DNA of 15,876 nt from a virus. The stretch is from UHGV virus genome UHGV-0274280; one strand, given 5' to 3'. The notes under the pieces were generated by a model. It had not been told where the DNA came from. It was given only the letters and a program-made list of their open reading frames with translations, and ran no database searches. A program made the translations under genes and the position numbers. Shown here one piece after another: positions 1,339 through 15,600 of this stretch; within the stretch, counting starts at the first letter, position 1; each line of letters starts with the position of its first letter.

Positions 1339-1446
1339 ATTTTCCTCCTAAACTTTACAAAAAGTATAATTCCAATATATTAATAATAAGCATTTCGTAG
1401 ATTTACAAATTTATTTGGATCGATTAAGATATTTATTTAAATTAAA

Positions 1447-1539: not shown

Positions 1540-1620
1540 CTTGCTAATAAACGGCAACCAAAATAATGTAAGTTATTTTGTAAGGTTTTAAGCCAAAATA
1601 TGGGGCCAAACTTTACATTT

Positions 1621-1935: not shown

Positions 1936-1955
1936 AACATGCCTCCCCAAATTAA

Positions 1956-2171: not shown

Positions 2172-2337
2172 TTGGCTACCTCCTCCGCTTCCGTTACGAA
2201 GATATTAGCCACACAGATTCGTATCTATGAAGGGAATGCTGATAACTGAAAAGTTAGATGAGGGAATAATGAAAGGAAATTCCGGGGAAGAAAAATATTT
2301 ACGCCCTCCCCTTGACAATTAACATGATGATTTACAA

Positions 2338-3147
2338 CTAGAAAGATCCGAGTTCCGAAATCGGTATGTTGCGGAGATGGCTGTTTTTGCTGATAAAATA
2401 TTCCAGACTACGGGTTGTTTCGCCATTCAATGACTTCTCTGCAACAGGCCTATCTGTATCTTTAATGTGATCTTCTCCTCTGATCTCATTTGTAAAGTCG
2501 GGATACAAGACACGAGACAAGACCATATTTGAGATTTTTACTTTTTTAAACTTTGCCCAAATCAATAAATCCATCATTGGGATAATATTGTAATCGACAA
2601 GTTTTCTTATTTTTGCAAGTCCAATTTTTTCTGTTTTCACTGGCTCAATTTCATATTCTTTTCTAAGATCTGGTAGCATCGTTTGTAAGGCTGTTATAAT
2701 TTCTTCATCGCTGGACATTCCTAAATCAAATGAAACATACATCTTGCTGCTATTTTGGTTTAGAAAAAAGTCCCTCATAGTTTTTGTAATTGGTTTCTTT
2801 TTCAACTCTTTTTTGAAATCGCCATTTTCTTCAAAAAAATCCATGCTAAACATTATTAACTTGTTCTCTAATTTTTTTATATCACCAAAGCTAACTTGCG
2901 CAACATGCCTTTGGCCCTTGCCAAAATGACCATGATTATTATCTTGTCTGCTTAAAATAGGATTACCTTCAAGGATAGACCTTAAATTTTGATTATCATC
3001 TTCCCATCCAAAATTTACACTGTCGAAAATCGCTTCTCTAAAGGCAAGCTCAGTATGCAGTTCTTTGATTGTAAGTGATTTTAACTGCTCATAGTTTTCG
3101 AGACTAAACCAGCTTTTTAATTCTTCATAAGGGCTTACTACTTTCAT
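2338..3147 (-). CDS. hypothetical protein, orphan cargo gene (269 aa from first ATG at 3147; 276 aa if the TTG at 3168 is used)
   Basis: Long ORF in AT-rich DNA between the P4-type integrase and alpA; GGAGG about 5 nt upstream of the ATG at 3147. No family recognised by eye. Confidence 0.5.
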   Translation of the reverse strand: MKVVSPYEELKSWFSLENYEQLKSLTIKELHTELAFREAIFDSVNFGWEDDNQNLRSILEGNPILSRQDNNHGHFGKGQRHVAQVSFGDIKKLENKLIMFSMDFFEENGDFKKELKKKPITKTMRDFFLNQNSSKMYVSFDLGMSSDEEIITALQTMLPDLRKEYEIEPVKTEKIGLAKIRKLVDYNIIPMMDLLIWAKFKKVKISNMVLSRVLYPDFTNEIRGEDHIKDTDRPVAEKSLNGETTRSLEYFISKNSHLRNIPISELGSF

Positions 3148-3204
3148 TAATCCCTCCACTGTATTCAAAGCTTGAATGAGTTAACACTGCTTATTTGAAT
3201 TAAT

Positions 3205-3232
3205 TCTCCCTTAACAAGATTGATAAGGGAGA
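3205..3232 (-). terminator. putative hairpin downstream of the P4-type integrase gene (8-bp stem TCTCCCTT / AAGGGAGA, 12-nt loop)
   Basis: Inverted repeat 27 bp past the int stop, followed on the minus strand by A/U-rich but not U-run sequence, so a weak intrinsic terminator at best. Confidence 0.3.
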
Positions 3233-3258
3233 GCGATTGATCATCTACTTATTCATAG

Positions 3259-4509
3259 TTAACTCTTTTTAAAATCAAATGGTGAAACTTGTCGTATTCT
3301 AAGGAGGTCAAGGTAATCGGCCCACCACTGCAACATAAGCTTTCTCTCATCAAGGTGCTCTGCTTTATGTATGTACGCAGCACGAACTGAGTTCCGCTCC
3401 TGATGGCTCATTTGCCGTTCAACAGCATCTTTCGACCACAAACCGGATTCAATTAAAGCACTACAAGCCATAGCTCTGAATCCATGTCCACAGACCTCCA
3501 CGGTTGTGTCATAGCCCATAGACCTCAAAGCCTTGTTTACCGTATTTTCACTCATGGGCTTTCTGAAATCATGGTCGCCAATGAACACGAGTTCATGGTC
3601 ACCGCTGATCTCTTTAATTTCCGTCAACACAGCCAATGCCTGACAACTCAAAGGAACAAGGTGTGGAGTTCGCATTTTCGAACCACGATGCGAATGTTTC
3701 ACTCCGGGTAATGGCTCTCGCTCTGCAGGAATAGTCCACATGGCATTGTCGAAATCTATCTCTGACCAACGAGCAAACCTGAGTTCACTCGAACGAATAA
3801 AAATGAGCAATGTAAGCTTTACGGCTAACTTCGTGAGCTTTCTACCTTTGAATATTTCAATTCGCTCTAGGAGTTCAGAGAAGCGATCAAACGGTAATGC
3901 CGGTCGGTGGGTTCTTTTTGCTACAGCAATAGCCCCAGACATTTCTTGGGCCGGATTATAGTCAATTAAGCCATTCTGGACGGCATATCGCAAAATTGCT
4001 GTGGTTCGTTGTTGTAGACGGGCTGCTACTTCTAACCGTCCAGAAGCTTCAACAACCTTGATCGGAACGAGTAGATCCTTGGTTTTAAGCTCGGCTATTT
4101 TTCTCTTTCCTATGAAAGAGAAAAGGTTATCTTCAAGGCTCTTTAAAACCCTCTCACTATGGGAATCTGACCATTTCCTTTTACAGGCAGTATGCCAGTC
4201 CCTTGCAACAGCTTCGAATGTCAGGGCTTCGCTTTGCTCGATTTTGTCTGCTTTTTTCTTTTCTGAGGGGTCGAGACCAAGCGATACTAATTTTTTGGCT
4301 TCATCCCGTTTCTTGCGGGCTTCACTAAGAGAGACCATTGGATAAACACCCAATGCTAAAACTTTCTGTTTGCCATCGAAACGGTATTGGAGTCGCCAGT
4401 ACTTCGAGCCGTTAGGATTGATCAGCAGGTGCATACCCTGCCCATCGGTGAGTTTGAAGGGTTTGTCGGAGGGCTTGGTAGTCCTAACTTTGATATCGGT
4501 GAGAGCCAT
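3259..4509 (-). CDS. int: P4 / CP4-57-type tyrosine integrase (416 aa)
   Basis: N-terminal arm-binding region (KPSDKPFKLTDGQGMHLLINPNGSKYWRLQYRFDGKQKVLALGVYPMVSLSEARKKRDEAKKLVSLGLDP) typical of P4-like integrases; catalytic region with HGFRAMACSAL and ...RAAYIH. ATG at 4509 with GGAGG 9 nt upstream. Confidence 0.85.
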   Translation of the reverse strand: MALTDIKVRTTKPSDKPFKLTDGQGMHLLINPNGSKYWRLQYRFDGKQKVLALGVYPMVSLSEARKKRDEAKKLVSLGLDPSEKKKADKIEQSEALTFEAVARDWHTACKRKWSDSHSERVLKSLEDNLFSFIGKRKIAELKTKDLLVPIKVVEASGRLEVAARLQQRTTAILRYAVQNGLIDYNPAQEMSGAIAVAKRTHRPALPFDRFSELLERIEIFKGRKLTKLAVKLTLLIFIRSSELRFARWSEIDFDNAMWTIPAEREPLPGVKHSHRGSKMRTPHLVPLSCQALAVLTEIKEISGDHELVFIGDHDFRKPMSENTVNKALRSMGYDTTVEVCGHGFRAMACSALIESGLWSKDAVERQMSHQERNSVRAAYIHKAEHLDERKLMLQWWADYLDLLRIRQVSPFDFKKS

Positions 4510-4601
4510 CAGTTGATACCTCCAGTGTTGGTACCAAAATCAATCGAACCGGGAATACCATCAGTTATACCATCATCAGTTGGTATATGTTCAAGGAATT
4601 G

Positions 4602-4681
4602 AGTAGACGTAGACAGACTAAGAAAAGCCAGAAACCTGCTTAACTTACTGTTTTTATGGACTAAAGTAGACGTTAGTAGAC
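4602..4681 (+). repeat. direct repeats AGTAGACGT (4602-4610, 4665-4673) and AGTAGAC (4675-4681); putative arm-type integrase binding sites
   Basis: Three copies of the 7-mer core, two spaced 10 bp apart, between the integrase start and the tRNA-end fragment, where att arm sites are expected. Confidence 0.4.
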
Positions 4682-4698
4682 TTGAAAAAAGCTTTGTA

Positions 4699-4729
4699 TG
4701 GTGCCGAAGGCCGGACTCGAACCGGCACG
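4699..4729 (-). other. 31-nt tRNA 3'-end fragment (T-arm, acceptor 3' strand, CCA); leuX / tRNA-Leu-like; putative att core or direct repeat
   Basis: Reverse complement reads CGTGCCGGTTCGAGTCCGGCCTTCGGCACCA: T-stem GCCGG/CCGGC, T-loop TTCGAGT, CCA end. It matches my recollection of the last 31 nt of E. coli leuX. The upstream sequence does not supply the complementary acceptor 5' strand (GCCGAAG), so this is not a complete tRNA gene. Confidence 0.6.
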
Positions 4730-4862: not shown

Positions 4863-6071
4863 ATGAGTTTCAAGAGAGATCGTTATCTAGTTTTAGATCC
4901 CTGCGGGAATTACCTCGTGCGGATAGCTATCCCCAGCTATATGCGTCACCTGTTCCAAGGGAAACGCTACTTTATGAAAAGCACAGGGACACGAGACATA
5001 CGGCAAGCGCGATTGTTTCGCGATGCTATTGCTCTGGAATGGACTCGCTTACGGAATCTGCTAAAGCCACAAGGCGGCTCATCTGTAGACCAAATCATTG
5101 ATGAGCTACGCCGTGTCAGTGTGTACGCCAAGGAAGCCCCCGCATCGTTTGGTGCATCGATTCAGGCTTGCCCTTCCTTGCTAAAAATGCGTGATTTGTA
5201 CCTGCTTCAATACAGCGAGAAGCGAAAGCTAACCACGCTATCCAAGACCAATAAAGCCGTAGAGGTGCTGTTAACCCACCTGAAAAAGAAAGATGTTCAG
5301 TTGCGAGATATTAACCGAACCATAGTTACAGGCTGGTTAGATAAACTCAAAACTGAGCGAGCGCCCCAAACCATCCAGAACTATATCAGTGCACTGGCGC
5401 AGATATGGGATTTGGCACGCAATCGCTATCACGATGCGCCACAGGATAACCCTTGGCGTGGTCATGCACTCGAAGCAAAAAGCAGCAAGGTCAGCTATGA
5501 AGTCTTCGCACCGGGAGAGCTGGCAAAGGTCTATACCTTGCTTGATGACGAGATGAAGGCGGTAACGGCTATTGGTGCTTACAGCGGTATGCGGATCAAT
5601 GAAATATGTACGCTGCGTGAGAGCAGTATTAAAACCATCGAGGGCGTTTTGTGCTTTGAGATCACCGAGGGGAAGACCAAGAGCGCGGCACGAATCGTCC
5701 CAGTACACAGCAAGCTAATCCCCCTCGTGAAATCATTGCTCAAAACCACACATAGCGGTTTTCTGTTCTATCACGCGTCAATTACAGACCGGGCGGATGG
5801 GAAGCGCTCAACGTGGCATACGCAGCAGTTCACACGGGCAAAGCGTAAAGCTCTTGGCGAACTTGCCGCAGAGAGAAAAGTGTTTCACTCACTCCGCCAT
5901 GCGTTTGTGCAACAACTCGACCGTGCTCAAGTGCCAGAAGATAGGATCGCTCTGCTTGTAGGCCACGAACGAGGTAGCACTGAGAGTTTTAAGACATATT
6001 CAAAAAACGCAGCATCCCCTTTAGAGATGCGCCGGTATATTGAATTAATAGATTATGAATTAATTAAATGA
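4863..6071 (+). CDS. int: tyrosine-type phage integrase (402 aa), different family from the P4-type one
   Basis: N-terminal YLVRIAIPSYMRHLFQGKRYFMKSTGTRDIRQARL pattern common to phage/island integrases; C-terminal HSLRHAF (H-x-x-R) and LLVGHERGSTESFKTYSK (candidate Tyr). Transcribed away from the tRNA fragment. Confidence 0.8.
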   Translation: MSFKRDRYLVLDPCGNYLVRIAIPSYMRHLFQGKRYFMKSTGTRDIRQARLFRDAIALEWTRLRNLLKPQGGSSVDQIIDELRRVSVYAKEAPASFGASIQACPSLLKMRDLYLLQYSEKRKLTTLSKTNKAVEVLLTHLKKKDVQLRDINRTIVTGWLDKLKTERAPQTIQNYISALAQIWDLARNRYHDAPQDNPWRGHALEAKSSKVSYEVFAPGELAKVYTLLDDEMKAVTAIGAYSGMRINEICTLRESSIKTIEGVLCFEITEGKTKSAARIVPVHSKLIPLVKSLLKTTHSGFLFYHASITDRADGKRSTWHTQQFTRAKRKALGELAAERKVFHSLRHAFVQQLDRAQVPEDRIALLVGHERGSTESFKTYSKNAASPLEMRRYIELIDYELIK

Positions 6072-6106: not shown

Positions 6107-6580
6107 CTATGCAGCCGCTTCTGTTATACGTTCTCGATATTGTTTAGCTTCATCTATCCACATTTGTATTGCTTCTTGATTGTCCCAATTTGCATGGGCA
6201 TCATGATCAATAAAATCAACAATATAGTAGTGCCTTGTACCTGAGAATACAAAATACGAATATATCAAATAGCTGTTACTTTTACATTTCCATTGTACCA
6301 GTGGATGCCCATTGTCATCCTCCCAGACACTGTCTTCCTGCCTCACATGTAGATGTGTTAAACCTTCTCTTTTCTGATGATACGGCTTATCTTCATCAAC
6401 ATTGTCCCTATCTCTGCCAAAGAGCAGCGAAATAGATGCAAAAAGTTTTTGGATGGAATATCGGGGGCGGGAATGCTCTGCACTTAGTTGCTTATAGCGA
6501 CAGAACTCCTGATAAAAAGGAAGAAACTCGCCATCATTGGCGAGTTTTTCACAGCAATCAAACTCAATTGCAAGCGGCAT
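6107..6580 (-). CDS. hypothetical protein (157 aa), AT-rich moron gene
   Basis: ORF whose ATG at 6580 lies inside the 3' end of the upstream small ORF; AT-rich relative to the flanking operon; no family recognised. Confidence 0.5.
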   Translation of the reverse strand: MPLAIEFDCCEKLANDGEFLPFYQEFCRYKQLSAEHSRPRYSIQKLFASISLLFGRDRDNVDEDKPYHQKREGLTHLHVRQEDSVWEDDNGHPLVQWKCKSNSYLIYSYFVFSGTRHYYIVDFIDHDAHANWDNQEAIQMWIDEAKQYRERITEAAA

Positions 6581-6896: not shown

Positions 6897-7325
6897 TTAT
6901 GCTGGATAAATAATACCCAGCCCCTTGTAGTGGCGGCGGTAGGCTGGTAGCATGAAATTCATGCTACCGGGTGAGAGTCCACACACCCGCCCTACATAAT
7001 AGCCACCCTCAGCAGCATTAGCAGAGCGATGCACCACAGCACGCACGCGCCCGGTTCGGTGGCAGTGATCCAGCACGGCAGACGCAAGGCGCAGCGGCTT
7101 ACCTGTCACCGCACAGCGTCGGTATTGATAATTCCACAGGAAGACACGGACAGCGGCCACATCAGCGCGGCGCAACTCCAGCCGCCCGGAACCATTCAAC
7201 AGGAAGCGATAAACATCTTCGAATGCAGCAGCGTTTGTAATCCGTTCCGCCAGTGGCATATTGCCAAGGTGTTCCAGATAGCCCCGCATAGCTTTTCTTA
7301 ATAGCTGGTCTGTCCGTGTAACCAT
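6897..7325 (-). CDS. endonuclease VII-like (T4 gp49-type Holliday-junction resolvase family) protein, divergent (142 aa)
   Basis: CAVTGKPL...LDHCHRTGRVRAVVHRSANAAEG resembles the Endo VII core (C..C...LDHDH..G.VRGLLC..CN.AEG) but the second Cys pair is replaced by His/Ala. Confidence 0.55.
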   Translation of the reverse strand: MVTRTDQLLRKAMRGYLEHLGNMPLAERITNAAAFEDVYRFLLNGSGRLELRRADVAAVRVFLWNYQYRRCAVTGKPLRLASAVLDHCHRTGRVRAVVHRSANAAEGGYYVGRVCGLSPGSMNFMLPAYRRHYKGLGIIYPA

Positions 7326-7597
7326 GATTCAAAGTCTCCATTGTCAGATGAAGCCCGCTTGCAGGCTTCATATTCTTCGCACTGGCGCTGGCGTACCAAA
7401 GCATAAAGCTCATCGGCCAACGCATTAACGCGTTCGTCACTGATACCATTGCGGCGCATTAGCCCCAGCAGCTTACGAAACTCAGCTTCAAGCTCAGGCT
7501 CTCCGGTATCTATTACCCACTGTTTCAGGTAAGCAAGTGTGCCAGTCATTGGCGGCGGCTCGATGTACCGCCACCTTAATTTAATTGTGGTTATCAT
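7298..7597 (-). CDS. hypothetical protein (99 aa from ATG at 7597)
   Basis: ATG at 7597 with GAGAGGA about 9 nt upstream; overlaps the neighbouring genes at both ends. The ORF track's longer start at 7645 lacks an RBS. Confidence 0.4.
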   Translation of the reverse strand: MITTIKLRWRYIEPPPMTGTLAYLKQWVIDTGEPELEAEFRKLLGLMRRNGISDERVNALADELYALVRQRQCEEYEACKRASSDNGDFESWLHGQTSY

Positions 7598-8006
7598 CTT
7601 CTTTATCCTCTCTGTAAGCCGGGTGCATTGCCCGGTATTGCTCAATGGTCAAACCCTCGCTGGCCGCTGTAAGCCGTTCCTTTTGCTTACCTGCCAATCG
7701 CAAGGCGCTATCTCTCCAGCAAAGCAGAAAGAAGACGGTCAGCACCTGCTTACTCAAGCCATCCAGAAGATCGCCAAGCCCTTGATCCAGCAGACAGACA
7801 CGCCATGCAGCGGCGTGCTCAGTCATAGCACCGACTATCGGGACAGGTGCGCCAAGCATCGTCGCAAGCTGACTCATAACACTATTAGCATCGCCCGGAT
7901 GCAGCCGGGGAATAGACATGCGGCCAGCCTGCGCCAACAGTTCAGCGTACCGCTGGCGGCGTGGGTCATCATCTGCCAGCGCTCTAATCGGCTTTTCATC
8001 AGCCAT
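7581..8006 (-). CDS. hypothetical protein (141 aa)
   Basis: ATG at 8006 with GGAGG 9 nt upstream, 18 nt after the HNH gene stop; no motif recognised. Confidence 0.5.
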   Translation of the reverse strand: MADEKPIRALADDDPRRQRYAELLAQAGRMSIPRLHPGDANSVMSQLATMLGAPVPIVGAMTEHAAAWRVCLLDQGLGDLLDGLSKQVLTVFFLLCWRDSALRLAGKQKERLTAASEGLTIEQYRAMHPAYREDKEDDNHN

Positions 8007-8024: not shown

Positions 8025-8534
8025 TTAGGCAGCCTGCAATAAATCGGCTGGCGTTGAGGGATGGCATCTGGCTTTAGCTTTTAGATAGGCAGCACGCGCC
8101 GCCACTTCGGTAGTAAATAAGCCAAGGTGACGGAGTACACCATCAACGCGTATGTAAGCCTCCCATTTTCTACAGCCCTTATTCCAGCTATACCCCCTTG
8201 CCTTGCGTCGGTTCTGGTCGTTTTCCCGCTGCGTAACCAAGCGCAGATTGCATAGGCGATTGTCGTCACGGATACCGTTGATGTGATCGATCTGCTTACC
8301 ATGAGGAATAGCGCCATGCGCAAGAATCCACGCCACGCGATGGGCTTTTAGCTGGTACTGCTTGCCATCAAGTCGCAGGGCAACTTGACGATAGCCATCA
8401 GCTCGCCGGGTGGAGTCAGCATAGGAGCCAGCCTTAACCCGGCGTCGGTTAGCTTTATGGTGCAGGCGGCCTGTCACCGGGTCATACAGGAAAAGGGAAC
8501 ACAGCAGCTCAGGGGCGTAAGCATCATTAACCAT
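8025..8534 (-). CDS. HNH endonuclease with AP2-like DNA-binding domain (169 aa)
   Basis: HRVAWILAHGAIPHGKQIDHINGIRDDNRLCNLRLVTQRENDQN is a typical HNH_3-type motif, followed by GYSWNKGCRKWEAYIRVDGVLRHLGLFTTEVAARAAY (AP2-like). GGAGG 9 nt upstream of the ATG. Confidence 0.75.
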   Translation of the reverse strand: MVNDAYAPELLCSLFLYDPVTGRLHHKANRRRVKAGSYADSTRRADGYRQVALRLDGKQYQLKAHRVAWILAHGAIPHGKQIDHINGIRDDNRLCNLRLVTQRENDQNRRKARGYSWNKGCRKWEAYIRVDGVLRHLGLFTTEVAARAAYLKAKARCHPSTPADLLQAA

Positions 8535-8550: not shown

Positions 8551-9546
8551 TTATGCAGCTTGTCGGAAATTGATAACGCAGTCAGGACGACGCAGCCCAA
8601 CGTTGAACAGGCGATATGAGTCCATCACCATTGTCATTTCGCGTTCATCATCCCACTGGCGATTGATGACGCTCTGCGCTTCGACCGTCAGCAGCACAGA
8701 GGAAGGTTTAAACAGCGTCGCCCTCGTCATCGCTTCCTCTGCGGTAACGTCATAATCAGCGCCCAGTTCATGCCCGGTAATGACTTCCTGCGGGTAACTG
8801 TTCAGCTCAATGACTCGCACCCCAGCGACATAGCCAACGCGACGCCATGCGTAATCGTTGCCACTATCCCGGCTGTAACGGACGTTCATCAGCTTCTTAT
8901 GTTCCATCAGGATGCTGAACCATGCAGGGTCAATGAGAAGCACCAGCTCGGCCACCGGAATATCTTTCTCAGTGAGGAAGCGATTAGCAGCCGCTTTGAC
9001 GGCGTGAACCAATTCGTTTGCGGCGTCCTCTTCGCTCCCCGCTGTCAGGTCGAGCGAGACAACGTTATTCGTAAGCGGGTTAAACGTTGGTTGCAGTGTC
9101 GGCGGCGGTACAAAGTCAGTCGCTTTGATTAACTGGATGGTGTGCGCTTCGTCGTAGAACTTAGCGTGCGCAGTGCCGATATTGCGGCTCAGCTCTGCGC
9201 GAAATGTGGGTGCTGTCCAATCGTCCTGATAGTCAATCGGGACGCGGATATAACTCAGCGTATCCACAGAGATAACCAACTTGTCCGACTTAACGGCGGT
9301 AGGCTCCAGCGATTGCCCTGCGGTTCTGCCCTTCACCTCAAGATCACCACTCAGGCGATCAATGCGGTATTGGTTGCTGCCTTTCAGCGGCCTGTATGTA
9401 GACAGCCCCTCGGCCAGAAATACGGATTTGGACTCTAAACGGGTCTGGACATCCCGGTCATAAGCCTCGATGTGAATATCATTGTCGGATTCCACCCCGC
9501 CATAATGTGGGCGAAACAGATCGGGACTGTACGAAGTATCAGCCAT
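8551..9546 (-). CDS. major capsid protein homolog, T7 gp10-like (331 aa from ATG at 9546)
   Basis: By-eye block alignment to T7 gp10A from memory: KLVISVDTLSYIRVPIDYQDD...RAELSRNIGTAHAKFYDEA vs KVITIDGLLTADVLIYDIED...RSEYTSQLGESLAMAADGA, and FLTEKDIPVAELVLLIDPAWFSIL vs LTKNYVPAADRVFYCDPDSYSAIL. Similar length (T7 gp10A is 345 aa). AGGAG 8 nt upstream of ATG 9546; the ORF track start at 9591 has no RBS. Confidence 0.6.
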   Translation of the reverse strand: MADTSYSPDLFRPHYGGVESDNDIHIEAYDRDVQTRLESKSVFLAEGLSTYRPLKGSNQYRIDRLSGDLEVKGRTAGQSLEPTAVKSDKLVISVDTLSYIRVPIDYQDDWTAPTFRAELSRNIGTAHAKFYDEAHTIQLIKATDFVPPPTLQPTFNPLTNNVVSLDLTAGSEEDAANELVHAVKAAANRFLTEKDIPVAELVLLIDPAWFSILMEHKKLMNVRYSRDSGNDYAWRRVGYVAGVRVIELNSYPQEVITGHELGADYDVTAEEAMTRATLFKPSSVLLTVEAQSVINRQWDDEREMTMVMDSYRLFNVGLRRPDCVINFRQAA

Positions 9547-9744: not shown

Positions 9745-10158
9745 TTAGTGCGCACTCATACGCGCCATGTTCAACACCTTCCGCACAGAGGTTTCAGACA
9801 CGCCAACCTTGCTTGCAATGTAACGATTCTTCTGGCCTTTTGCAGAGCGAACGATAATGTCAGCGCGTATCGCCTCAGTGATTACCTTGCGGGGTCTGGC
9901 TCGATTCTTCTCGTGCCGTTCACGTTCGCGCATCCGCTCGGCCATCTTCGGCGGCAGCACAGGGGAAAGCCCACGGCTAACGCCAGATGTGCGGGTGCCG
10001 GATGTGGCAGACCGTGCAACGATATAAACCGCTTCGTCTGGATTGAAAACGTGCGGCACACGCTCAGGGTAAACATGATCACATCTACCCAGCGGCAAGG
10101 CGAAATCCGGGCGCACGTCAGCGACACGCTCCACAGCATGGAAATTACAGGTACTCAT
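9745..10158 (-). CDS. HTH DNA-binding protein (137 aa); possible small terminase subunit or regulator
   Basis: C-terminal helix-turn-helix-like segment RYIASKVGVSETSVRKVL preceded by a basic stretch; GAGG 6 nt upstream of the ATG. Function not assignable from sequence alone. Confidence 0.45.
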   Translation of the reverse strand: MSTCNFHAVERVADVRPDFALPLGRCDHVYPERVPHVFNPDEAVYIVARSATSGTRTSGVSRGLSPVLPPKMAERMRERERHEKNRARPRKVITEAIRADIIVRSAKGQKNRYIASKVGVSETSVRKVLNMARMSAH

Positions 10159-10297: not shown

Positions 10298-10978
10298 TTA
10301 GCGACCAGCACGTTTGCCAGCGGAGCGCTGCGCAACCAGAGCGCGGTATTGTTCATCGTACTGGCGATGGCCGGGGCCATACCCTGATTGCTGCGCCCAC
10401 TGCGAAAGCTGGTCATACGCTGCTATAAACTCAGCATGTGACATTCCGACAGGTTGCGCGGCAGTCTGGCCGTTCGGGACGTAACCGGTAATGGAACCGC
10501 CAGCCATACGCTCTTGCAGATACTGAACCGCACGCGACATCTGCGCGGGATCGCCAGACATGACCATCCGTTCAAGGGTTGATTGCGTCCCGGCGTCGAG
10601 CGTGCCAGCGTACTGCAACATCGCGTCAACTGTACCCTGACCTAGCTGGCTTTCGACAGACTGGTGAAACTGCCCCATCAGCCCATGAAGTTCAGGAGTC
10701 AACTCAACAGTGGTGCCATCCTGTAATTGCAGTGTGTCGCCCACTTGCGCCCCAGCGCTGTCAGCGTTCTGGTCTTGCTGATTTGCGATATTGCCATTAT
10801 TCCATTGTCCGCCATCATTGCCGTTAACGGGTTGGGTACGGAGGAAATCAGCATCAGCAGGCGCAGAGCTAAAGCGGGATGCTCCATTGTCAACTCCAAC
10901 AGGTGCAGCCATGTATGGCGATTGCTGCGATGCAGCATCAGCACCGGAAAGGTACGGATTAACATTCTGGTCAGACAT
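10298..10978 (-). CDS. acidic Q/N/G-rich low-complexity protein (226 aa); possible scaffolding or other assembly protein
   Basis: AGGAGA 7 nt upstream of the ATG; sits two genes upstream of the capsid gene. Composition is rich in Q, N, G, D and A. Confidence 0.45.
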   Translation of the reverse strand: MSDQNVNPYLSGADAASQQSPYMAAPVGVDNGASRFSSAPADADFLRTQPVNGNDGGQWNNGNIANQQDQNADSAGAQVGDTLQLQDGTTVELTPELHGLMGQFHQSVESQLGQGTVDAMLQYAGTLDAGTQSTLERMVMSGDPAQMSRAVQYLQERMAGGSITGYVPNGQTAAQPVGMSHAEFIAAYDQLSQWAQQSGYGPGHRQYDEQYRALVAQRSAGKRAGR

Positions 10979-11233: not shown

Positions 11234-11470
11234 TTAAAGTAATCCACGTTTACGAAGCCAACGACGCTCACCAACGGAGCCGCGCGGGCGTTGTTTCGGA
11301 TTCTGGTTAAGTGTTTGGCTGGGGTCAGTTCGACCTTTCCCGGTCAGGTTCTGCGTCAGCACATCCCAACCCCGTGATTCAATCGGAGCGTATCCTTCGC
11401 GTTGTTCGTCAAGGTTCACGTAGAGATCAGGGTTAACGGCGGGGTGCAGCGGTTCGTTCTCTGCCATCAT
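11234..11470 (-). CDS. hypothetical protein (78 aa)
   Basis: Start ATG overlaps the stop of the upstream gene (ATGA), indicating translational coupling. Confidence 0.4.
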   Translation of the reverse strand: MMAENEPLHPAVNPDLYVNLDEQREGYAPIESRGWDVLTQNLTGKGRTDPSQTLNQNPKQRPRGSVGERRWLRKRGLL

Positions 11471-12030
11471 TCAGCCTCGCTGAATTTGGAGTTAACAGAC
11501 TCCAGAGTATCCGGGTACGACCAACGATTTCTCAGGCAGCGTTGCACATGCGCGACGACCTCAACAGGGACGCCCAGCTTCCCGGCGATCTCCGCAGCAG
11601 GCCAACCGAAGCGCTCTAACTTGTGGATTTCATCTAAATCAGTAGGCACTAACTTGCGCACTACTTTCGGCTTCGCTGGCTTCACCTTCAAGGGTTTCTG
11701 TACCGGGTGCGTGTGGGCGTTGCTAAAGCGGGAATGGGCGATAGCCAGCACCGTCTCAGGGCGAATCAGCATATCGCGGGCAATCATAAACTCTGTATCG
11801 CGGTGCAGCTTGCCGGGCTTATAGCGGCTGCGGATGGCGTTGTACTCCGCCAGATTAATATCAGCATCGTCTTTCCAATGTTCGGCCAAGTCATCGACAT
11901 AGGCGCCACGGATTACTGCATCAATATCGGTCAGGGTATGACCTGTCTCCGCTGCAATCTCTTCATTGTTCTTTAGGTGCTTATGAGCCAGCGCGTTAAT
12001 GCGCTGGATATCGGTAATACTCAAAGTCAT
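11467..12030 (-). CDS. putative DNA-binding protein (187 aa) with C-terminal sigma-70 region-4-like HTH
   Basis: DLDEIHKLERFGWPAAEIAGKLGVPVEVVAHVQRCL resembles a region-4/LuxR-type HTH; GGAG 9 nt upstream; ATGA overlap with the upstream ORF. Confidence 0.5.
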   Translation of the reverse strand: MTLSITDIQRINALAHKHLKNNEEIAAETGHTLTDIDAVIRGAYVDDLAEHWKDDADINLAEYNAIRSRYKPGKLHRDTEFMIARDMLIRPETVLAIAHSRFSNAHTHPVQKPLKVKPAKPKVVRKLVPTDLDEIHKLERFGWPAAEIAGKLGVPVEVVAHVQRCLRNRWSYPDTLESVNSKFSEAE

Positions 12031-12203
12031 AAATTAAACTCCGAATCAAATTTGATCTGGTCAGTAACCAACGTGTGAATCAGCGCAAGGCTTGACGCGG
12101 TGTGTGTGCCCGACTTGCGGGCGTTGTCGTACATGAAGCGGACTACACGTTGATATTTCTCCGGCAGCGTGGCGAACCATTGCCGGAACTGTTCAGGGGT
12201 CAT
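12027..12203 (-). CDS. hypothetical small protein (58 aa), absent from the ORF track
   Basis: MTPEQFRQWFATLPEKYQRVVRFMYDNARKSGTHTASSLALIHTLVTDQIKFDSEFNL; its start overlaps the upstream stop (caATGAcc) and its stop overlaps the downstream start (ttATGAct), closing an apparent 170-bp gap in the operon. Confidence 0.35.
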   Translation of the reverse strand: MTPEQFRQWFATLPEKYQRVVRFMYDNARKSGTHTASSLALIHTLVTDQIKFDSEFNL

Positions 12204-12409
12204 TGGTCGTCATCCTCCGGGAACACGTTGTTAAAGGTTGTATCAGGCGAGTCGGCGGCGTTCTGCTTGAGGAAGTTCACGCAGGATGACAACTCGGCAG
12301 CAGCCATGCGTGACTCTCCCGCCTCGTCCTCCTTAAGCCTGCGCGTCAACGCACCCAGCAGCAGGGTTTTTAGTTCCCATGCTCCGGCTTCAAATTCAGA
12401 TTTCGTCAT
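12200..12409 (-). CDS. hypothetical protein (69 aa)
   Basis: ATGA overlap with the upstream 145-aa gene; acidic C-terminus. Confidence 0.4.
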   Translation of the reverse strand: MTKSEFEAGAWELKTLLLGALTRRLKEDEAGESRMAAAELSSCVNFLKQNAADSPDTTFNNVFPEDDDQ

Positions 12410-12843
12410 TGGTGGTTATCTCCAACTGGTAACAGGCCTAGCGCACGGATGTGCTGAATCACTTCTTGATGCACGGGCTTCGGCAGAAACAAACGGCGGG
12501 CAATGGCGGCGTAAACTTCATCAGGAGTCTTGCGTACCGGATGCACCCGGCCATTGAAAACCCGGTCGGACAACCGGACGGCTTTCCAGCGACGCGAGCC
12601 ATCCGGCCTTTTCATGCGGTTCAGTACAGCGGCCAGACACTCCCACGGCTCGCAATCATTCAGCAGGCAATATCGCTCCAGCGGTGTAAATACCTCGCGA
12701 ATGATGGCCTCACGATTAAGGGTCTTGCGATGAGGTTCGGCCAGTTCATCCCAGTTGTACCCATTCAGGGCGAAAGCTAGTTGTGCGGTGATGAGCGCAT
12801 CCGCACGCGCAGCACGACGCTGCGCATGTTCGGTAACAGGCAT
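12406..12843 (-). CDS. hypothetical protein (145 aa)
   Basis: ATG at 12843 with GGAG 8 nt upstream, 37 nt after the helicase stop; no motif recognised. Confidence 0.5.
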   Translation of the reverse strand: MPVTEHAQRRAARADALITAQLAFALNGYNWDELAEPHRKTLNREAIIREVFTPLERYCLLNDCEPWECLAAVLNRMKRPDGSRRWKAVRLSDRVFNGRVHPVRKTPDEVYAAIARRLFLPKPVHQEVIQHIRALGLLPVGDNHQ

Positions 12844-12880: not shown

Positions 12881-14725
12881 TCAGAGGTATTTAGCGATGT
12901 ACTGCCAGTTGCAGTTTTCAGGGCGGTAGAAGTAAGCAAGCTCATCAGGCGCAACATCCAGCGCCAGCGATGACCACAGCAGAAAAGCGCGGGCAGGTTC
13001 CCCATCGCGCCCGGCTCGTCCAATCATCTGAACGAGATCAGGCAAATCATCGGGGACGTATGTCACGACAACGTTACGGATATCAGGAACATCAGCACCC
13101 AGCCCGAAGGCTTTAGTAGCAATAAGAATCGCGCCCGGCGTAGAGGCAAACCACTCAGCGTTTGCGTGGCGTTCCTCGTTGCTCAGGTGCATCGTCTTCG
13201 AGTGATATGGCCGCGCCCGGTCGCCCAAGAGTTTCAGGTACGCCCGCAACGTTTTAAGGTCATTGACGAGAATAAGCGTCTTCTCTTCTTTCGGCAGAGC
13301 CTCGACCAGACCAATAGCCGCTCGGAAACGTTCGCGGCACTGTCTGACTGGCGTCAACTGGATATTCTCGCGAGCAACATCAGCGCGGAATGTTACGTAA
13401 TCGCCACGGCAGCCAAGCGACTCCATTAAACTGCGCTCATTTTCGCGTAGCAGCGTAGCCGTAAACACGCAGCGTTGAGCCGAAGGAAAGGCATTCTGTA
13501 GTGTGTGCTGCATTGCGTCGTAAGCTGGGCGGAAATCCCAGTCTTTGACCGTGTGTGCCTCATCGATAATAAAACGATCAACGCCATAAGCCATCAGCGC
13601 CGCGAGAACCTGACTCGACGGAACCAGATGTTCAGGCGAAACGACTGCAACCCGGAACGCCCCGGCAGCCAGCCCCGCCAGTTGTTGCGCATTGCGGTGC
13701 CTCGGCAGCTTGTCACCAAATGCCACAGCGTGAACGCCAGCCTCCCGCAACTGGCGGAGAATCTGACGCTTAAGGGTATTAGTAGGAACAACGATAACAG
13801 ACAGGCCAACGCCAGCGCGGGATTCATAAATCAATGGGTAAGTGAAGGCAGCGCTTTTGCCATACCCAGTAGGCAGAACGGCAAGCACATCACTGCCACG
13901 GGAAAAGATCGCATCAGCAACAGACAATTGCCCCGGCCTCCACTCCAGCCCATCAGGTGGCAGCAGGCTAACGCGTGCGTTTCGGTCACAGCGAGCCAGG
14001 GGGCGGAACTCATACGGCGTAGTATTCAGTGGCGGCACAGACGGCGAAGCAGCCAAGCCGTTCGGGTCACAATGATGATTTGTATTATTAAATCTATCTT
14101 CGGTAGGCTTCGACTCTCCACACCAAAATTGACGAAACTCCCCTGAGTCTCCGTAGCGTTTGAAATCTGCGTTACGCATCGCTTCCAGTTTACCCATGCC
14201 CCTGTTAATTCGGCGCATGGTCTTCTCATCGCAAATGAGAAACTCGCGGCAGGCTTTGAGAAAAGCATTCTGTCCGGTTGTTGATTCCGGCACGGCGTGC
14301 TCGCGCGGTTTCAATGCGGCATCGTCTACGCGAACGCCGGGGAAATCTGGCGGCAGTGGTTCAACATAACGAGCAGGCTTTTTATTTAGCCATTGCTCAA
14401 TCTCAGCGCGTCGGCAGTGAATCGCGTCGCCGGGCTGGATGACTTGCCGCAACCCAGCGTCAGAGCGCTGTTTTTGTTTCTTCGGTTGAACACCGTGCAG
14501 CGTTCGCCACTCCCGCAAGGTCATCGCGGAGCCATCTGCATTGTAATAAAACTCTTCGGTCTTTGTGTTGTATGCCGCCTTAACGGGCTTACGCTTTACG
14601 GGGCATATCTTGGAACGTCGAATAACAACCCCGTCAGCGATCATTTGCTGTACATCTGCGTCCGCAGTATTGAGCGGGTCAGCGTCGGCAGCCTGCGCAA
14701 GCAGGCGGCGTAGGTTTGTTGGCAT
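12881..14725 (-). CDS. RecQ-family DEAH-box superfamily-2 DNA helicase with ~270-aa N-terminal domain of unknown function (614 aa)
   Basis: Walker A LAVLPTGYGKSAAF, motif II FIIDEAHTVKDWDFRPAY (RecQ signature DEAH...W..DFRP.Y), motif III VFTATL, C-terminal ILIATKAFGLGADVPDIRNVVVTYVPDDLPDLVQMIGRAGRDG. GGAG 8 nt upstream of the ATG. First gene of the operon. Confidence 0.8.
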   Translation of the reverse strand: MPTNLRRLLAQAADADPLNTADADVQQMIADGVVIRRSKICPVKRKPVKAAYNTKTEEFYYNADGSAMTLREWRTLHGVQPKKQKQRSDAGLRQVIQPGDAIHCRRAEIEQWLNKKPARYVEPLPPDFPGVRVDDAALKPREHAVPESTTGQNAFLKACREFLICDEKTMRRINRGMGKLEAMRNADFKRYGDSGEFRQFWCGESKPTEDRFNNTNHHCDPNGLAASPSVPPLNTTPYEFRPLARCDRNARVSLLPPDGLEWRPGQLSVADAIFSRGSDVLAVLPTGYGKSAAFTYPLIYESRAGVGLSVIVVPTNTLKRQILRQLREAGVHAVAFGDKLPRHRNAQQLAGLAAGAFRVAVVSPEHLVPSSQVLAALMAYGVDRFIIDEAHTVKDWDFRPAYDAMQHTLQNAFPSAQRCVFTATLLRENERSLMESLGCRGDYVTFRADVARENIQLTPVRQCRERFRAAIGLVEALPKEEKTLILVNDLKTLRAYLKLLGDRARPYHSKTMHLSNEERHANAEWFASTPGAILIATKAFGLGADVPDIRNVVVTYVPDDLPDLVQMIGRAGRDGEPARAFLLWSSLALDVAPDELAYFYRPENCNWQYIAKYL

Positions 14726-15114
14726 GGTGAAATCTCCAGAAAATAGGGGTAGGTATTAGCTCAGGTTGGGGCGGTGGTACAGGTGCGGCAGACTCTCTGC
14801 CCTTATAGAGGTTTTCATGTCGGCAACAGTGTCAGTGTCTTTATCTGCCTTAATAGTCACTTTCAAAATCGGAGAGTTTGTCGCGCTTCGGGAGTTATTC
14901 TTTCTCCTTAGTAGATACCTTCATTAGGTCAATTTTTAACCACAACCTCGCTAAGCCTTACTGAGCCTGGGCTGGCAATACTTAACAGCGCGATTTTTGT
15001 CGGTCAAAAGCGGGAAAGTAATGCTCTATATCTCCTTATTAGTAGCCTTTAAAATTAAAAATATAAGTTACTGATATCAATAGATAATTATGAAAGTGTC
15101 TATAGTGATATAGT

Positions 15115-15600
15115 ATCGCTAGATACGCAGAGCGAGCGCGGCGCAGCCGAAACAAGCGAGCGCCGAACTGATGACGGATGGCAGACCGTAGGACTGACAG
15201 ACGGCAGACAGTGAAGGCAGTAGGACAGGTGACAGACAGTAACCGTGACGGCGTGCCATAGCTGGCAGTAGCACAGCAGGCAGTAAGACCAATGACCGAC
15301 GGCTAAGACCTGAAAGGAAACGAAAAAGAAAGATGATTGAACGATACAGAAATGAATGAAGATGTTTTGAAGAATACCTACCGATAACAGTATATGATTG
15401 ATTAAATTAACAATACCGATAAAGAGTACCGTTCCACTACACATCCCCGCCGCGTTGCCTGCCACGGCAAGCACGGTTGCGTAGAGTCGCCGAGCATCAG
15501 CAGCGGGCGAAGACCGGGAATGAGCCAAAGGCGATGGAGCGGGCTGGAGCATAGCGAGAAGCGCAGCAAGTGAAGAGAGCGAAGCACTCGTAACTACATT
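15115..15600. repeat. T-depleted, purine-rich non-coding region with short degenerate repeats (GGCAG x5, GGCAGTA x3, GACAG x5, AGCGAGCGC x2, GCGAAG x3)
   Basis: About 10% T in sampled 60-nt lines between 15121 and 15300. GGCAG starts at 15180, 15203, 15216, 15264, 15279; GACAG at 15196, 15207, 15224, 15231, 15235. No ORF of 60 aa or more on the plus strand. Confidence 0.5.

Follow-up and report, generated by a model that had tools for sequence, protein, structure and literature searches.

T7-like phages, used as models and in therapy, are strictly lytic, and the locus examined here raises the question of what a capsid gene of this group is doing in a bacterial chromosome. Working from two blocks that could be aligned by eye, the first-pass annotation had proposed that the open reading frame at positions 8551 to 9546 of the window (the whole stretch of DNA that was analysed, 15,876 nucleotides) encodes a homolog of the T7 gp10 major capsid protein within a chromosomally integrated element, next to an HNH endonuclease and an HTH protein rather than a portal gene.

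The capsid protein and its relatives

8551-9546, minus strand: major capsid protein (331 aa), HK97 fold, Autographiviridae type

The reading frame ends at position 8551 on the minus strand, and its longest form is 346 aa with a start at 9591; the start at 9546 (331 aa), which has AGGAG 8 nt upstream, is the one chosen by RefSeq and in the first-pass annotation. A PHROG profile scan matched the protein to PHROG 267 'major head protein' (E=6.6e-71), and phmmer matched it to the solved podophage capsids 23sf (E=1.5e-79, residues 1-324) and 8eld (E=7e-76, residues 1-330), which places it by full-length sequence and profile matches in the Autographiviridae-type capsid family (T7 gp10/PHROG 267). 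Identity was 54-57% to Bonnellvirus capsids and 50% to that of LIMEzero, whereas BLASTP against T7 gp10A returned a single 166-aa block with 22% identity (E=0.021; 19% identity overall), and gp10A (2xvr) became significant only when the capsid family profile was used (E=7.7e-5). By sequence comparison, the protein is Bonnellvirus/LIMEzero-like, that is, related to phages of phiKMV-type genome organisation, and not near T7 gp10 itself.

The AlphaFold model of the capsid protein was of moderate confidence (pLDDT 71, pTM 0.71), with the N-terminal 38 residues unmodelled. Its best PDB matches were all HK97-fold capsids, including those of HRP29 (8eld; E=5e-25, TM 0.67) and PhiM1, and it also matched T7 (3j7w; E=2e-8, TM 0.57) and HK97 (2fte; E=2e-6). 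The top 50 Foldseek matches were capsid proteins nearly throughout, and two were encapsulin shells, which have the same fold. The profile comparison (PHROG 267, 23sf, 8eld) and the fold comparison (8eld, 3j7w) agreed in placing the protein among the HK97-fold major capsid proteins of the Autographiviridae, confirming a capsid homolog of the T7 group; the particular likeness to gp10A held up at the level of profile and fold and did not extend to direct alignment. The gene at 8551-9546 encodes a genuine HK97-fold major capsid protein of the T7 family (Autographiviridae).

The gene is also intact and kept by purifying selection. Among nine variants, the median dN/dS was 0.09 (range 0.05-0.16) and no indels were found. 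The capsid proteins of related islands form a separate monophyletic clade found in islands only, the nearest non-island capsid proteins among 5.8 billion proteins being 56% identical, and no phage capsid in a collection of 50,697 phage records was more than 57% identical. The capsids of the two island lineages described below are 58% identical to each other and at most 57% and 51% identical, respectively, to those of any phage. When the island core was compared with the same 50,697 records by blastn, the capsid gene was the sole match, and tblastn of all 20 island proteins against the Lidtsur genome found only the capsid, plus weak fragments of endonuclease VII and of the small terminase (TerS).

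The island and its gene content

Comparison of the window with reference strain EC09 showed that divergence starts directly left of a copy of the tRNA-Leu 3' end at 4699-4729. From 4699 onward, the window is identical, bar one base, to a genome (L002) in which the direct repeats lie at 17899-17930 and 32524-32555, 14,625 bp apart, and the same repeat (31-32 nt) bounds the island in eight further genomes. The island of roughly 14.6 kb sits in tRNA-Leu (leuX) and carries its own integrase, so the proposal that the capsid gene resides in a chromosomally integrated element was borne out by the integrase and the tRNA-Leu direct repeat. At 3259-4509, beyond the att boundary, there is a P4-type integrase that belongs to an adjacent element, and an AlpA gene at 1956-2171 is part of this neighbouring P4-integrase island. 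The following features were assigned within the island, in addition to the capsid gene.

4699-4729, no strand: distal att repeat, a 31-nt copy of the tRNA-Leu(CAA) leuX 3' end
4863-6071, plus strand: tyrosine integrase (402 aa; PF00589, E=7e-17, and DUF6538; PHROG 1 integrase, E=3e-35)
6107-6580, minus strand: YafO-like toxin in a variable cargo slot (PF13957, E=2e-10)
6897-7325, minus strand: endonuclease VII-like nuclease, last gene of the core operon (PF02945, E=4e-6; PHROG 423, E=1e-15)
7298-7597, minus strand: conserved 99-aa core protein (88-98% in lineage 1, 43% in lineage 2)
7581-8006, minus strand: lineage-specific 141-aa protein (83-96% conserved in lineage 1)
8025-8534, minus strand: HNH homing-type endonuclease (PF13392, E=9e-19; PHROG 99, E=7.5e-53)
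9745-10158, minus strand: 137-aa protein with a weak HTH match, in a variable slot (PF13384, E=4e-4, below the Pfam cut-off)
10298-10978, minus strand: scaffolding-protein homologue (226 aa), from hhalign against phage scaffolds
10982-11221 and 11234-11467, minus strand: two small conserved core ORFs (79 aa and 77 aa), kept in both lineages
11467-12030, minus strand: 187-aa core protein with a weak C-terminal HTH (PHROG 3855, E=6e-4; 40% in lineage 2)
12027-12203, minus strand: conserved 58-aa core ORF, found in both lineages
12200-12409, minus strand: 69-aa TerS-like protein, resembling the N-terminal half of a T7 gp18-type small terminase
12406-12843, minus strand: conserved 145-aa core protein, kept in both lineages
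12881-14725, minus strand: RecQ-family SF2 helicase (614 aa), first gene of the operon (PF00270 and PF00271)

The main operon is a single unit of 8 kb, and the G+C content of the core operon (54.7%) is close to that of Lidtsur (54.6%) and LIMEzero (55.4%), the flanking chromosome being about 50%. The island core was found in Escherichia, Enterobacter, Kluyvera, Kosakonia, Trabulsiella, Cronobacter, Citrobacter, Klebsiella, Phytobacter and Salmonella, genera that overlap the host genera of Bonnellvirus-like phages, and about 1% of complete E. coli genomes carry the island. Near-identical islands occur across many genera, and there are at least two deep lineages with shared synteny and core proteins 35-58% identical. 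More than 10 independent genomes show the same reduced gene set, gene order and size of 14-15 kb, and the length of 10 islands stays between 14,273 and 15,158 bp (sd 0.25 kb) despite swaps of cargo, which corresponds to 0.33-0.37 (about 0.35) of phage genomes of 40.8-43.0 kb. The metagenomic variants L015 and L016, which are diverged and apparently frameshifted, were left out.

As had been described, the capsid gene is flanked by the HNH gene and the weak-HTH gene, and no portal or tail gene was found near it by Pfam, PHROG and tblastn searches. What the first-pass annotation had overlooked is a scaffolding-protein homologue at 10298-10978, just upstream, so that the capsid gene does not stand alone. 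An alignment of the island family with seven phage scaffolds using hhalign gave a probability of 96.1% (E=3e-9), C-terminus to C-terminus, the likeness being limited to the C-terminal ~100 residues of a protein of 226 aa compared with 387-411 aa in phages (411 aa in Bonnellvirus). The scaffold is 45% identical in lineage 2, and one homologue is already named 'Scaffolding protein' in UniRef. Taken together, the purifying selection on the capsid gene (dN/dS 0.09) and the retained scaffold partner argue that the protein is functional.

The 69-aa protein showed 48% identity over 44 aa to the TerS of Lidtsur. PHROG 891, the helper-type TerS family, was the best match in four of four variants and the sole match in three of these (E=0.004-0.03), and PF11123 was the only Pfam match in six of seven variants, all below the cut-off (best E=3e-4). 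As the island alignment was broadened, the hhalign probability went from 81% to 80% and 59%, and for this reason the small-terminase identity is suggestive only. Searching the phage collection by tblastn with the scaffold-like and TerS-like proteins gave nothing usable, and the phage homology of both was seen by pairwise or profile comparison only.

The HNH gene lies directly downstream of the capsid gene with a 17-nt gap and shares 41-46% identity with HNH genes found in Xp10-like and KP34-like phages. Since it is placed elsewhere in lineage 2 (upstream of the helicase in L036), sequence comparison marks it as an accessory gene. The 137-aa weak-HTH protein, between the scaffold and capsid genes, is absent in four variants (L009-L012), and its slot is elsewhere filled by unrelated ORFs of 87, 115 or 160 aa. 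Likewise, the YafO-like toxin, in the slot between endonuclease VII and the integrase, is missing from other variants, in which the slot holds AbiTii, ThsB-TIR and further genes. Endonuclease VII, with a weak match to that of Lidtsur, is kept in both lineages, and the integrase is 95-97% conserved across related islands. The 99-aa, 141-aa, 79-aa, 77-aa and 145-aa proteins had no match in family scans, and the 141-aa protein has no counterpart in L036; the 187-aa core protein is a candidate regulator or excision factor.

The helicase, a candidate replication protein, matched TIGR00614 under the cut-off (E=9e-42), the PADLOC sub-model 'DpdF' PDLC02858 with E=1e-276, and the NCBIfam DpdF model with 127 bits against a cut-off of 550; its uncharacterised N-terminal region (~260 aa) had no PDB match. 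A Dpd (7-deazaguanine) defence system was rejected as an identification, because only the helicase sub-model matches and the other Dpd components are absent from the island. Current automated pipelines call the island a prophage, hypothetical proteins or 'DpdF'. Genes for portal, large terminase, tail, lysis, RNA polymerase and DNA polymerase were absent from the island in Pfam, PHROG and tblastn searches, and no phage counterpart was found for the helicase, the resolvase and most of the small genes. Neither Rfam families nor tRNAs were found within the window.

Promoter motif, genome-end segment and candidate origin

Upstream of the helicase gene, a weight-matrix search identified matches to a phage-type promoter motif, and a repeat cluster lies beyond them.

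14844-15052, minus strand: three tandem matches to a phage-RNA-polymerase promoter motif
14866 to 14844, minus strand: promoter match 1, TTGAAAGTGACTATTAAGGCAGA
14924 to 14902, minus strand: promoter match 2, ATGAAGGTATCTACTAAGGAGAA
15052 to 15030, minus strand: promoter match 3, TTAAAGGCTACTAATAAGGAGAT
15173-15300, no strand: iteron-like short direct repeats of the GACAGACGGCAGAC and GGCAGTAGGACAG types (repeat families D1 and D2)

Measured from the helicase start, the three matches lie 141, 199 and 327 nt upstream, all oriented with the operon. The matrix was built from 10 Lidtsur and LIMEzero sites, chosen partly through similarity searches, and gave scores of 28.0, 17.6 and 17.4; 200 shuffles reached a maximum of 19.4 (95th percentile 15.5), so that two of the three score under the shuffle maximum. 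The strongest match differs from the Lidtsur site at 33128 at one of 20 positions. The motif is a predicted phage promoter on the basis of record annotation ('putative phage specific promoter' in the LIMEzero record) and its recurrence in phage genomes. Matches were present in nine of nine related islands, always upstream of the helicase and on the operon strand, and no comparable match was found in 34 kb of flanking chromosome. In one island (L014), the site ATGAAAGTGACTGCTAAGGATAA is 1 nt apart from the Lidtsur site at 20015; by sequence, the island promoter variants track the phage variants. The possibility that the motif is a ribosome-binding site was rejected, as no start codon follows in range and the copies in phage genomes are located within genes or well away from gene starts. 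Scans of the window for sigma-70 promoters and terminators showed no enrichment, and there were no meaningful tandem repeats.

A sensitive pairwise DNA search added a single match beyond the capsid gene, namely a segment of about 90 nt of non-coding island DNA just outside the window. Its counterpart in phages J8-65 and Lidtsur is the junction where the unique right end meets the 259-bp terminal repeat (73% identity over 87 nt, E=4e-8), and the segment also matches the initial 57 nt of the LIMEzero record. At the junction itself, the phages read CCTCCC|TCGAC and the island reads CCTCCC|TCAAC. The segment is present in every island variant, including the 58%-diverged lineage. The iteron-like cluster, which lies in a non-coding region of 1.26 kb, is a candidate replication origin.

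The satellite reading, its alternatives and known systems

We consider that the island is probably an integrative satellite parasitising virulent Bonnellvirus/LIMEzero-like Autographiviridae. Because of the scaffold, the phage-type promoters, the genome-end mimic and the conserved 14-15-kb element, it is better read as a phage satellite than as an odd prophage, and it has what satellites have in general, its own integration and replication functions (the latter from the candidate helicase and origin) together with an incomplete set of virion genes. In the cycle that we propose, the island would remain silent in the tRNA-Leu 3' end until infection by a helper, whose single-subunit RNA polymerase would start at the three promoter copies heading the 8-kb operon and so transcribe the helicase, the small proteins, the TerS-like protein, scaffold, capsid, HNH and endonuclease VII. 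Excision would proceed via the island integrase and replication via the RecQ-like helicase with the iteron-like origin beside it. The island capsid and scaffold would form a shell upon the helper portal, probably a small T=4 shell, since the island/helper size ratio of about 0.35 equals that of P4/P2 and SaPI1/80alpha. The helper terminase would then take the island copy of the genome-end junction and package the island DNA, with the TerS-like protein possibly steering it, and helper tails would finish the particle; the host would gain from the defence cargo and from interference with the helper. The genome-end mimic, the length constraint and the spread across genera lend indirect support to packaging and transfer. 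Several points count against the satellite reading. The integrase gene runs convergently with the operon and lacks a promoter of the phage type, which leaves excision without an evident trigger; two of the three promoter matches score under the shuffle maximum; the small-terminase match is weak; and the island capsid would have to assemble on a helper portal although no phage capsid in the collection exceeds 57% identity to it.

Free or packaged forms were also sought. Logan contigs of 14-15 kb were rejected as excised forms (L014 is chromosomal, and L029 and L032 break within the att repeat), as were L028 and L033 as free circles, each being of island length with the att repeat or tRNA 3' end at one end only. 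'Viral' contigs from IMG/VR proved to be chromosomal fragments with a tRNA-Leu flank, and a 'plasmid' match was a 4.9-Mb record merely labelled as plasmid. An exact-pattern search of metagenome and viral contigs, which has low power, gave 0 matches to a circular attP junction, and no particle-derived island sequence was found among such contigs.

These outcomes would fit an anti-phage defence island that is immobile or otherwise mobilised and itself unpackaged, in which the promoters act as an infection sensor and the capsid, scaffold, HNH, endonuclease VII and helicase serve as decoys or poisons of helper capsid assembly and DNA maturation. The promoter motif at the operon head, the two nucleases, the helicase matching a PADLOC defence model and the defence cargo in two hot spots speak for it as well, as does the insertion site, tRNA-Leu being a known hot spot of defence islands (bioRxiv 10.1101/2025.09.15.676423). 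We nevertheless regard it as unlikely, because pure defence leaves the conserved phage genome-end mimic and the TerS-like gene unexplained, and does not account for the narrow length of 14.3-15.2 kb despite cargo turnover or for near-identical islands in many genera. Interference and transfer are in any case compatible, since known satellites do both.

Far less probable still are two readings in which the capsid gene has no present role. If the island were an integrated T7-like (Bonnellvirus-like) prophage in decay, with the capsid gene as a leftover, the Bonnellvirus/LIMEzero parallels in capsid, scaffold, endonuclease VII, promoter motif and genome-end segment, and the integrase adjoining a tRNA, would follow; the recurrence of one gene set, order and size in two lineages would not, and neither would the intact state of all ORFs, the capsid dN/dS of about 0.09, or the distance to the nearest non-island capsids. 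Nor were structural or polymerase genes of a T7-like phage or prophage, complete or defective, or remnants or fragments of them (RNA polymerase, DNA polymerase, portal, tail, lysis) recognised, and the helicase, the resolvase and most small genes are without a phage counterpart. Hardly more can be said for the capsid gene as a roleless passenger, captured with the neighbouring HNH by collateral phage co-conversion: the HNH gene does lie 17 nt downstream, and HNH genes of the same family are frequent and multi-copy in Autographiviridae, yet lineage 2 carries its HNH gene at another position, with capsid and scaffold still in place, the island capsids are monophyletic and under strong purifying selection, and the scaffold partner is kept alongside.

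Among known systems, the satellite that we propose is closest in sequence to its putative helpers. Bonnellvirus and Waewaevirus (LIMEzero), Autographiviridae of phiKMV-type genome organisation, share with it a capsid 50-57% identical over the full length, the scaffold C-terminal domain, the scaffold-then-capsid order, the promoter motif, the genome-end junction and a similar core G+C. Unlike them, the island lacks genes for portal, tail tube, internal virion proteins, large terminase, polymerases and lysis, is integrated in a tRNA with an integrase, has a scaffold of 226 rather than 387-411 aa, and has an island-only capsid clade.

The helpers of cf-PICIs are temperate siphophages. Like the island as we read it, cf-PICIs (e.g., EcCI2) are integrated Enterobacteriaceae satellites of many genera with their own HK97-fold capsid, one that is only distantly related (9gyi; 11% identity, E=5e-6). 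They encode a full head and packaging module of portal, protease, head-tail connectors, TerS and TerL (PMC13612085), and of these genes Pfam, PHROG and NCBIfam searches of the island found only the doubtful TerS fragment, the weak TerS-like 69-aa protein. The island is likewise no classical PICI or SaPI, having no matches to Stl/AlpA regulation, pri-rep or Cpm/Ppi/Rpp and a helicase that is RecQ-like, and no P4-like satellite, as there were no matches to Sid, Psu, Delta, the alpha primase-helicase or the P4 integrase; Pfam and PHROG scans found no homologues of Sid, Psu, delta, alpha or Cpm in the island. P4 and SaPIs parasitise temperate phages, whose capsid protein they use with size-determining scaffolds (Sid; CpmA/B). 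P4 (helper P2) and SaPI1 (helper 80alpha) resemble the island in being about one third of the helper genome (0.35, the expectation for T=4 versus T=7 heads), in site-specific integration with an integrase and in the use, proposed for the island, of helper packaging machinery, whereas the island itself encodes a capsid and an internal scaffold and would exploit a virulent helper.

PLE (helper ICP1) and PICMI are chromosomal and apparently dependent on lytic helpers, as the island would be, and PLE, with nucleases and replication genes, and the very compact PICMI each recall it, although their hosts are unrelated (Vibrio) and their gene sets differ. In PLE, the coat protein hijacked from ICP1 is remodelled by TcaP (PMC10945586), PICMI lacks capsid genes and is packaged as concatemers (PMC10803314), and use of promoters of a helper single-subunit RNA polymerase is unreported for both. 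The Streptomyces satellites Mulch and MiniFlayer resemble the island in encoding their own encapsidation genes and lacking other essential functions (PMC10690885); they differ in their actinobacterial hosts, siphophage helpers, absence of sequence relationship and lack of replication genes, the island having a helicase and an origin-like region. A literature search covering sources outside subscription journals found no description of such an element and no satellite paper naming a T7-like phage as helper. With slightly less assurance than for the satellite reading as such, we lean towards the view that this is the first recognised satellite family of virulent T7-family (Autographiviridae) phages, combining a helper-promoter switch, its own probably T=4 capsid and scaffold shell on a stolen portal, a mimic of the terminal-repeat junction for packaging, and defence cargo ferried between Enterobacteriaceae genera.

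If the island is such a satellite, virulent podophages would also spread defence genes horizontally across the Enterobacteriaceae, and orthogonal phage-polymerase promoters would constitute a very simple helper sensor. It would further provide a natural capsid and scaffold pair working on a portal of foreign origin, an example of interest for the control of capsid size and for the engineering of delivery particles, and phage therapy with Bonnellvirus-like phages would have to weigh interference and transduction by resident islands, given their presence in about 1% of complete E. coli genomes.

The capsid gene and its phage relatives

The capsid gene of the island, an integrated element of about 14.6 kb in tRNA-Leu (leuX), occupies positions 8551-9546, as the first-pass annotation had placed it, and is encoded on the minus strand: the frame stops at 8551, and the start at 9546, which is also the RefSeq choice and lies 8 nt downstream of an AGGAG, gives a protein of 331 aa. 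No Pfam or NCBIfam model matched this protein, and PHROG 267 ("major head protein") matched it with E=6.6e-71. A phmmer comparison with PDB sequences returned full-length podophage capsids (23sf, E=1.5e-79; 8eld, E=7e-76; also 8vb0 and 9s9b). By tblastn against 50,697 phage genomes, 790 records were matched, all from Autographiviridae-like podophages; the closest were three coliphages of the genus Bonnellvirus, Lidtsur, glasur and J8-65, with 54-56% identity across 94-96% of the protein length, and LIMEzero came next (50%). T7 gp10A aligned by BLASTP only in a single 166-aa block (22% identity, E=0.021), was 19% identical in a multiple alignment and was reached by a profile of seven sequences (2xvr/3j7v, E=7.7e-5). 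An AlphaFold model (alignment of 31 sequences, pLDDT 71, pTM 0.71) matched essentially HK97-fold shell proteins only, including HRP29 (E=5e-25, TM 0.67), PhiM1, Kp7 and T7 3j7w (E=2e-8, TM 0.57). The profile and fold comparisons, which the first-pass annotation had proposed as checks, both returned capsids, and the assignment to a T7-family capsid stands. T7 gp10A itself is remote, and the earlier label "T7 gp10-like" should be replaced by "Bonnellvirus/LIMEzero-like, T7 family".

When 5.8 billion proteins were searched, island-type capsids grouped at 86% identity or more; below a gap followed two further island lineages at 58-59% (L036, from Enterobacter hormaechei, and L038), with phage proteins coming after them at no more than 56%. 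In the phylogeny against podovirus capsids (neighbour-joining), a long branch leads to the island proteins, which are sister to Bonnellvirus plus LIMEzero. In nine island copies from different genera the gene is 996 nt long with zero indels, and pairwise dN/dS is 0.05-0.16 (median 0.09), showing that it is under maintenance.

Boundaries and gene content of the island

From 4699 to its end, the window is the sequence of E. coli EC09 with one base different. In EC09 (49-kb reference locus L002) 14,625 bp lie between the two copies of a 32-nt direct repeat, which corresponds to the 3' end of tRNA-Leu(CAA); the tRNA-proximal 3.5 kb extends past the window end. These repeats, together with a tyrosine integrase, bear out the claim of an integrated element.

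Features at the leuX site (window coordinates unless L002 is named)
1-4698, neighbouring element, which includes a 109-aa ORF
136-1338, second tyrosine recombinase of the neighbouring element
1956-2171, AlpA
2338-3168, DUF6387
3259-4509, P4-type integrase
4699-4729, distal copy of the att repeat
6107-6580, cargo slot between endonuclease VII and integrase: YafO-like toxin here, AbiTii or ThsB-TIR elsewhere
14725 to 6897, minus strand, core operon (single operon): RecQ-like helicase; 145-, 69-, 58-, 187-, 77- and 79-aa proteins; 226-aa protein; variable slot; capsid protein; HNH; 141- and 99-aa proteins; endonuclease VII. Downstream lie the cargo slot and a convergent tyrosine integrase
9745-10158, slot between scaffold and capsid: 137-aa weak-HTH protein here, 87-, 115- or 160-aa ORFs elsewhere
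12881-14725, minus strand, RecQ-like helicase
L002 29990-30085 (about 16789-16884 in window numbering, past the window end), genome-end mimic, non-coding, between serine resolvase and cargo
Beside the tRNA-side att, third slot: TIR, DUF1643 or AbiJ

The element at 1-4698 (31-38% G+C) is a separate mobile element abutting the island, so that the leuX site holds a tandem array of islands, an arrangement that fits those described at tRNA-Leu/ahr (bioRxiv 10.1101/2025.09.15.676423). In EC09 a BREX fragment interrupted by IS1 takes its place.

Both neighbours reported for the capsid gene, the HNH protein and the (weak) HTH protein, are present. When all island proteins were compared with the whole Lidtsur genome by tblastn, only the capsid protein matched, apart from weak matches for endonuclease VII and the small terminase; neither this search nor family scans found portal, tail, large terminase, polymerase or lysis genes in the island. 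The lack of a portal and of the usual T7 morphogenesis neighbours was thus confirmed, although a scaffold homologue is retained. This 226-aa protein had no match in database searches, but was collinear with the Lidtsur scaffold at both C-termini, and profile-profile comparison of ten island homologues with seven phage scaffolds joined the last ~100 residues of both (probability 96.1%, E=3e-9); the scaffold-to-capsid gene order is the same in island and phages. Its shorter length (226 aa against 387-411 aa in Bonnellvirus and LIMEzero) is given no weight, because scaffolds of some other Autographiviridae, at 261-322 aa, are not much longer. The 69-aa protein is suggestive of a small terminase (TerS): over 44 aa it is 48% identical to Lidtsur TerS, in the N-terminal half of the latter, and PHROG 891, the family of Bonnellvirus and LIMEzero TerS, was the best match of all four variants (E=0.004-0.03) and the sole PHROGs match of three. 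PF11123 (T7 gp18 family) was the sole Pfam match in six of seven variants, always under its cut-off, and the hhalign probability fell from 81% to 80% to 59% as the island alignment was broadened.

The helicase is matched over its whole length by the PADLOC sub-model PDLC02858 "DpdF" (E=1e-276); no other Dpd genes are present in the island, and the NCBIfam DpdF model stays far under its cut-off. Apparently PDLC02858 was itself derived from this island family, and it would wrongly label the helicase as a Dpd defence gene.

The diverged island L036 keeps the first-lineage order (genome-end mimic, resolvase, helicase, TerS-like, scaffold, capsid, endonuclease VII, integrase) at 35-58% protein identity; its capsid is 58% identical to the first lineage and 51% to the nearest phage. 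A pRha-domain gene is added, and its HNH lies upstream of the helicase and not at the capsid, marking the HNH as accessory. L038, a short contig with the capsid-to-integrase part, is possibly a third diverged lineage. Islands occur in 60 of 5,426 complete E. coli genomes and also in Enterobacter, Kluyvera, Kosakonia, Trabulsiella, Cronobacter, Citrobacter, Klebsiella, Phytobacter and Salmonella.

Phage-type signals and island length

A 1.26-kb non-coding region separates helicase from resolvase and contains, upstream of the helicase, two sites that resemble motifs found between genes in Lidtsur and also the features annotated as "putative phage specific promoter" in the LIMEzero record. Both phages carry five copies at equivalent positions, and the pair inside the same internal-virion-protein gene differs exactly in the phage-specific core (GTATCTG vs GCAAGCA). 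Using a weight matrix of these ten sites (scoring 16.6-29.9; maximum of 200 shuffles, 19.4), window site 14924->14902 scored 28.0; it agrees with the Lidtsur 33128 site in all but 1 of 20 positions. Two further sites, at 14866 and 15052, scored 17.6 and 17.4, under the shuffle maximum. All three share the strand of the operon and precede its first gene by 141-327 nt. In nine related loci (14-21 kb) all matches of at least 14.5 preceded the helicase and were on the strand of the operon, and outside the island no score in the 49-kb EC09 locus exceeded 12.1. The experimentally defined KP34 promoter is TAATGTTACAGGAGTA (PMC6834552), and four to five promoter copies per genome are typical of this phage group (PMC11880802). 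As experimentally defined promoters of the group are few, we infer promoter function for the motif. A fourth match of marginal significance (L002 30969, minus strand, past the window; score 17.8) lies ~880 nt upstream of the genome-end mimic and points at it, reminiscent of how late transcription enters the concatemer junction of T7-like phages.

When whole phage genomes were compared with the island by sensitive blastn, a single match was obtained in addition to the capsid gene, with Lidtsur 40868-40953 (73.6% over 87 nt, E=6e-7). Its J8-65 counterpart is the junction where the unique right end meets the direct terminal repeat, annotated as 259 bp; the two repeat copies were compared and are identical. 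The LIMEzero counterpart is nucleotides 4-57, at the left end of the record. The island copy, of about 90 nt, crosses this junction (CCTCCC/TCAAC vs CCTCCC/TCGAC in the phage, the slash marking the junction), runs in operon orientation and is present in every island variant; a core of 47 nt is conserved at 90-98%, and in the second lineage the identity is 78% over 76 nt. The mimic is a candidate site for packaging.

Short iteron-like direct repeats (GACAGACGGCAGAC and GGCAGTAGGACAG) cluster at 15173-15300 beside an AT-rich stretch, within the 1.26-kb non-coding region; the cluster is a candidate origin of replication. A 150-aa minus-strand ORF (15100-15552) overlaps this region and is most likely spurious, given its low-complexity composition and absence from RefSeq annotation. 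A serine resolvase/invertase (L002 29190-29765, past the window) lies between the mimic and the promoter/origin region in all variants; multimer resolution is one possibility for it.

Ten islands measure 14,273-15,158 bp from att to att (mean 14.72 kb, sd 0.25 kb), and one carrying an IS3 insertion measures 15.7 kb. Total length is held at 14.3-15.2 kb despite the three variable slots, whose variants were drawn from the window and loci L028, L029, L032 and L033. The ratio to the phage genomes (40.8-43.0 kb) is 0.33-0.37. The same ratio holds for P4/P2 and SaPI1/80alpha, where it reflects T=4 vs T=7 heads. Three island copies would equal 1.03-1.08 helper genomes, so trimer packaging into helper-size heads is also possible.

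A proposed phage satellite and its alternatives

We consider the island somewhat likely to be a satellite of virulent Bonnellvirus-like Autographiviridae, because it combines an integrase and att sites with virion genes reduced to a co-retained capsid-plus-scaffold pair, helper-type promoter motifs heading the operon, a helper genome-end mimic, a helicase beside an origin-like region, a length fixed at roughly a third of the helper genome, cargo of defence genes and spread across genera. A decoy or abortive defence island that is not transferred would be compatible with the promoters and nucleases as well, but leaves the genome-end mimic and the fixed length unexplained, and we hold it to be improbable. 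Decay of a prophage is hard to reconcile with the reduced but conserved architecture and with the purifying selection on the capsid gene, and the second lineage speaks against a homing-endonuclease passenger; we give either reading very little credence.

Candidate free forms were rejected: island-length Logan contigs were att-bounded assembly breaks or chromosomal, IMG/VR entries included the tRNA flank, and the single "plasmid" match was a 4.9-Mb record carrying that label. An attP junction pattern search of metagenome and viral contigs, a test of low power, gave no match, and none of the data covered by the analysis held particle-level evidence.

On induction, helper-type promoters would drive the whole operon, and the island would be excised and then replicated; a small capsid may be assembled from island proteins on the helper portal, and island DNA packaged. 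The island is not a T7-like prophage, and it falls outside the cf-PICI, PICI, P4-like and PLE groups by the membership tests of each. Searches of the open full-text literature found neither a capsid-bearing island of this kind nor any Autographiviridae satellite, and the island would therefore be a new family of phage satellite. By analogy, its mode of action would be most like a hybrid of cf-PICIs, which it resembles in having its own capsid protein, and P4/SaPI, which it resembles in its one-third genome and putative helper packaging.
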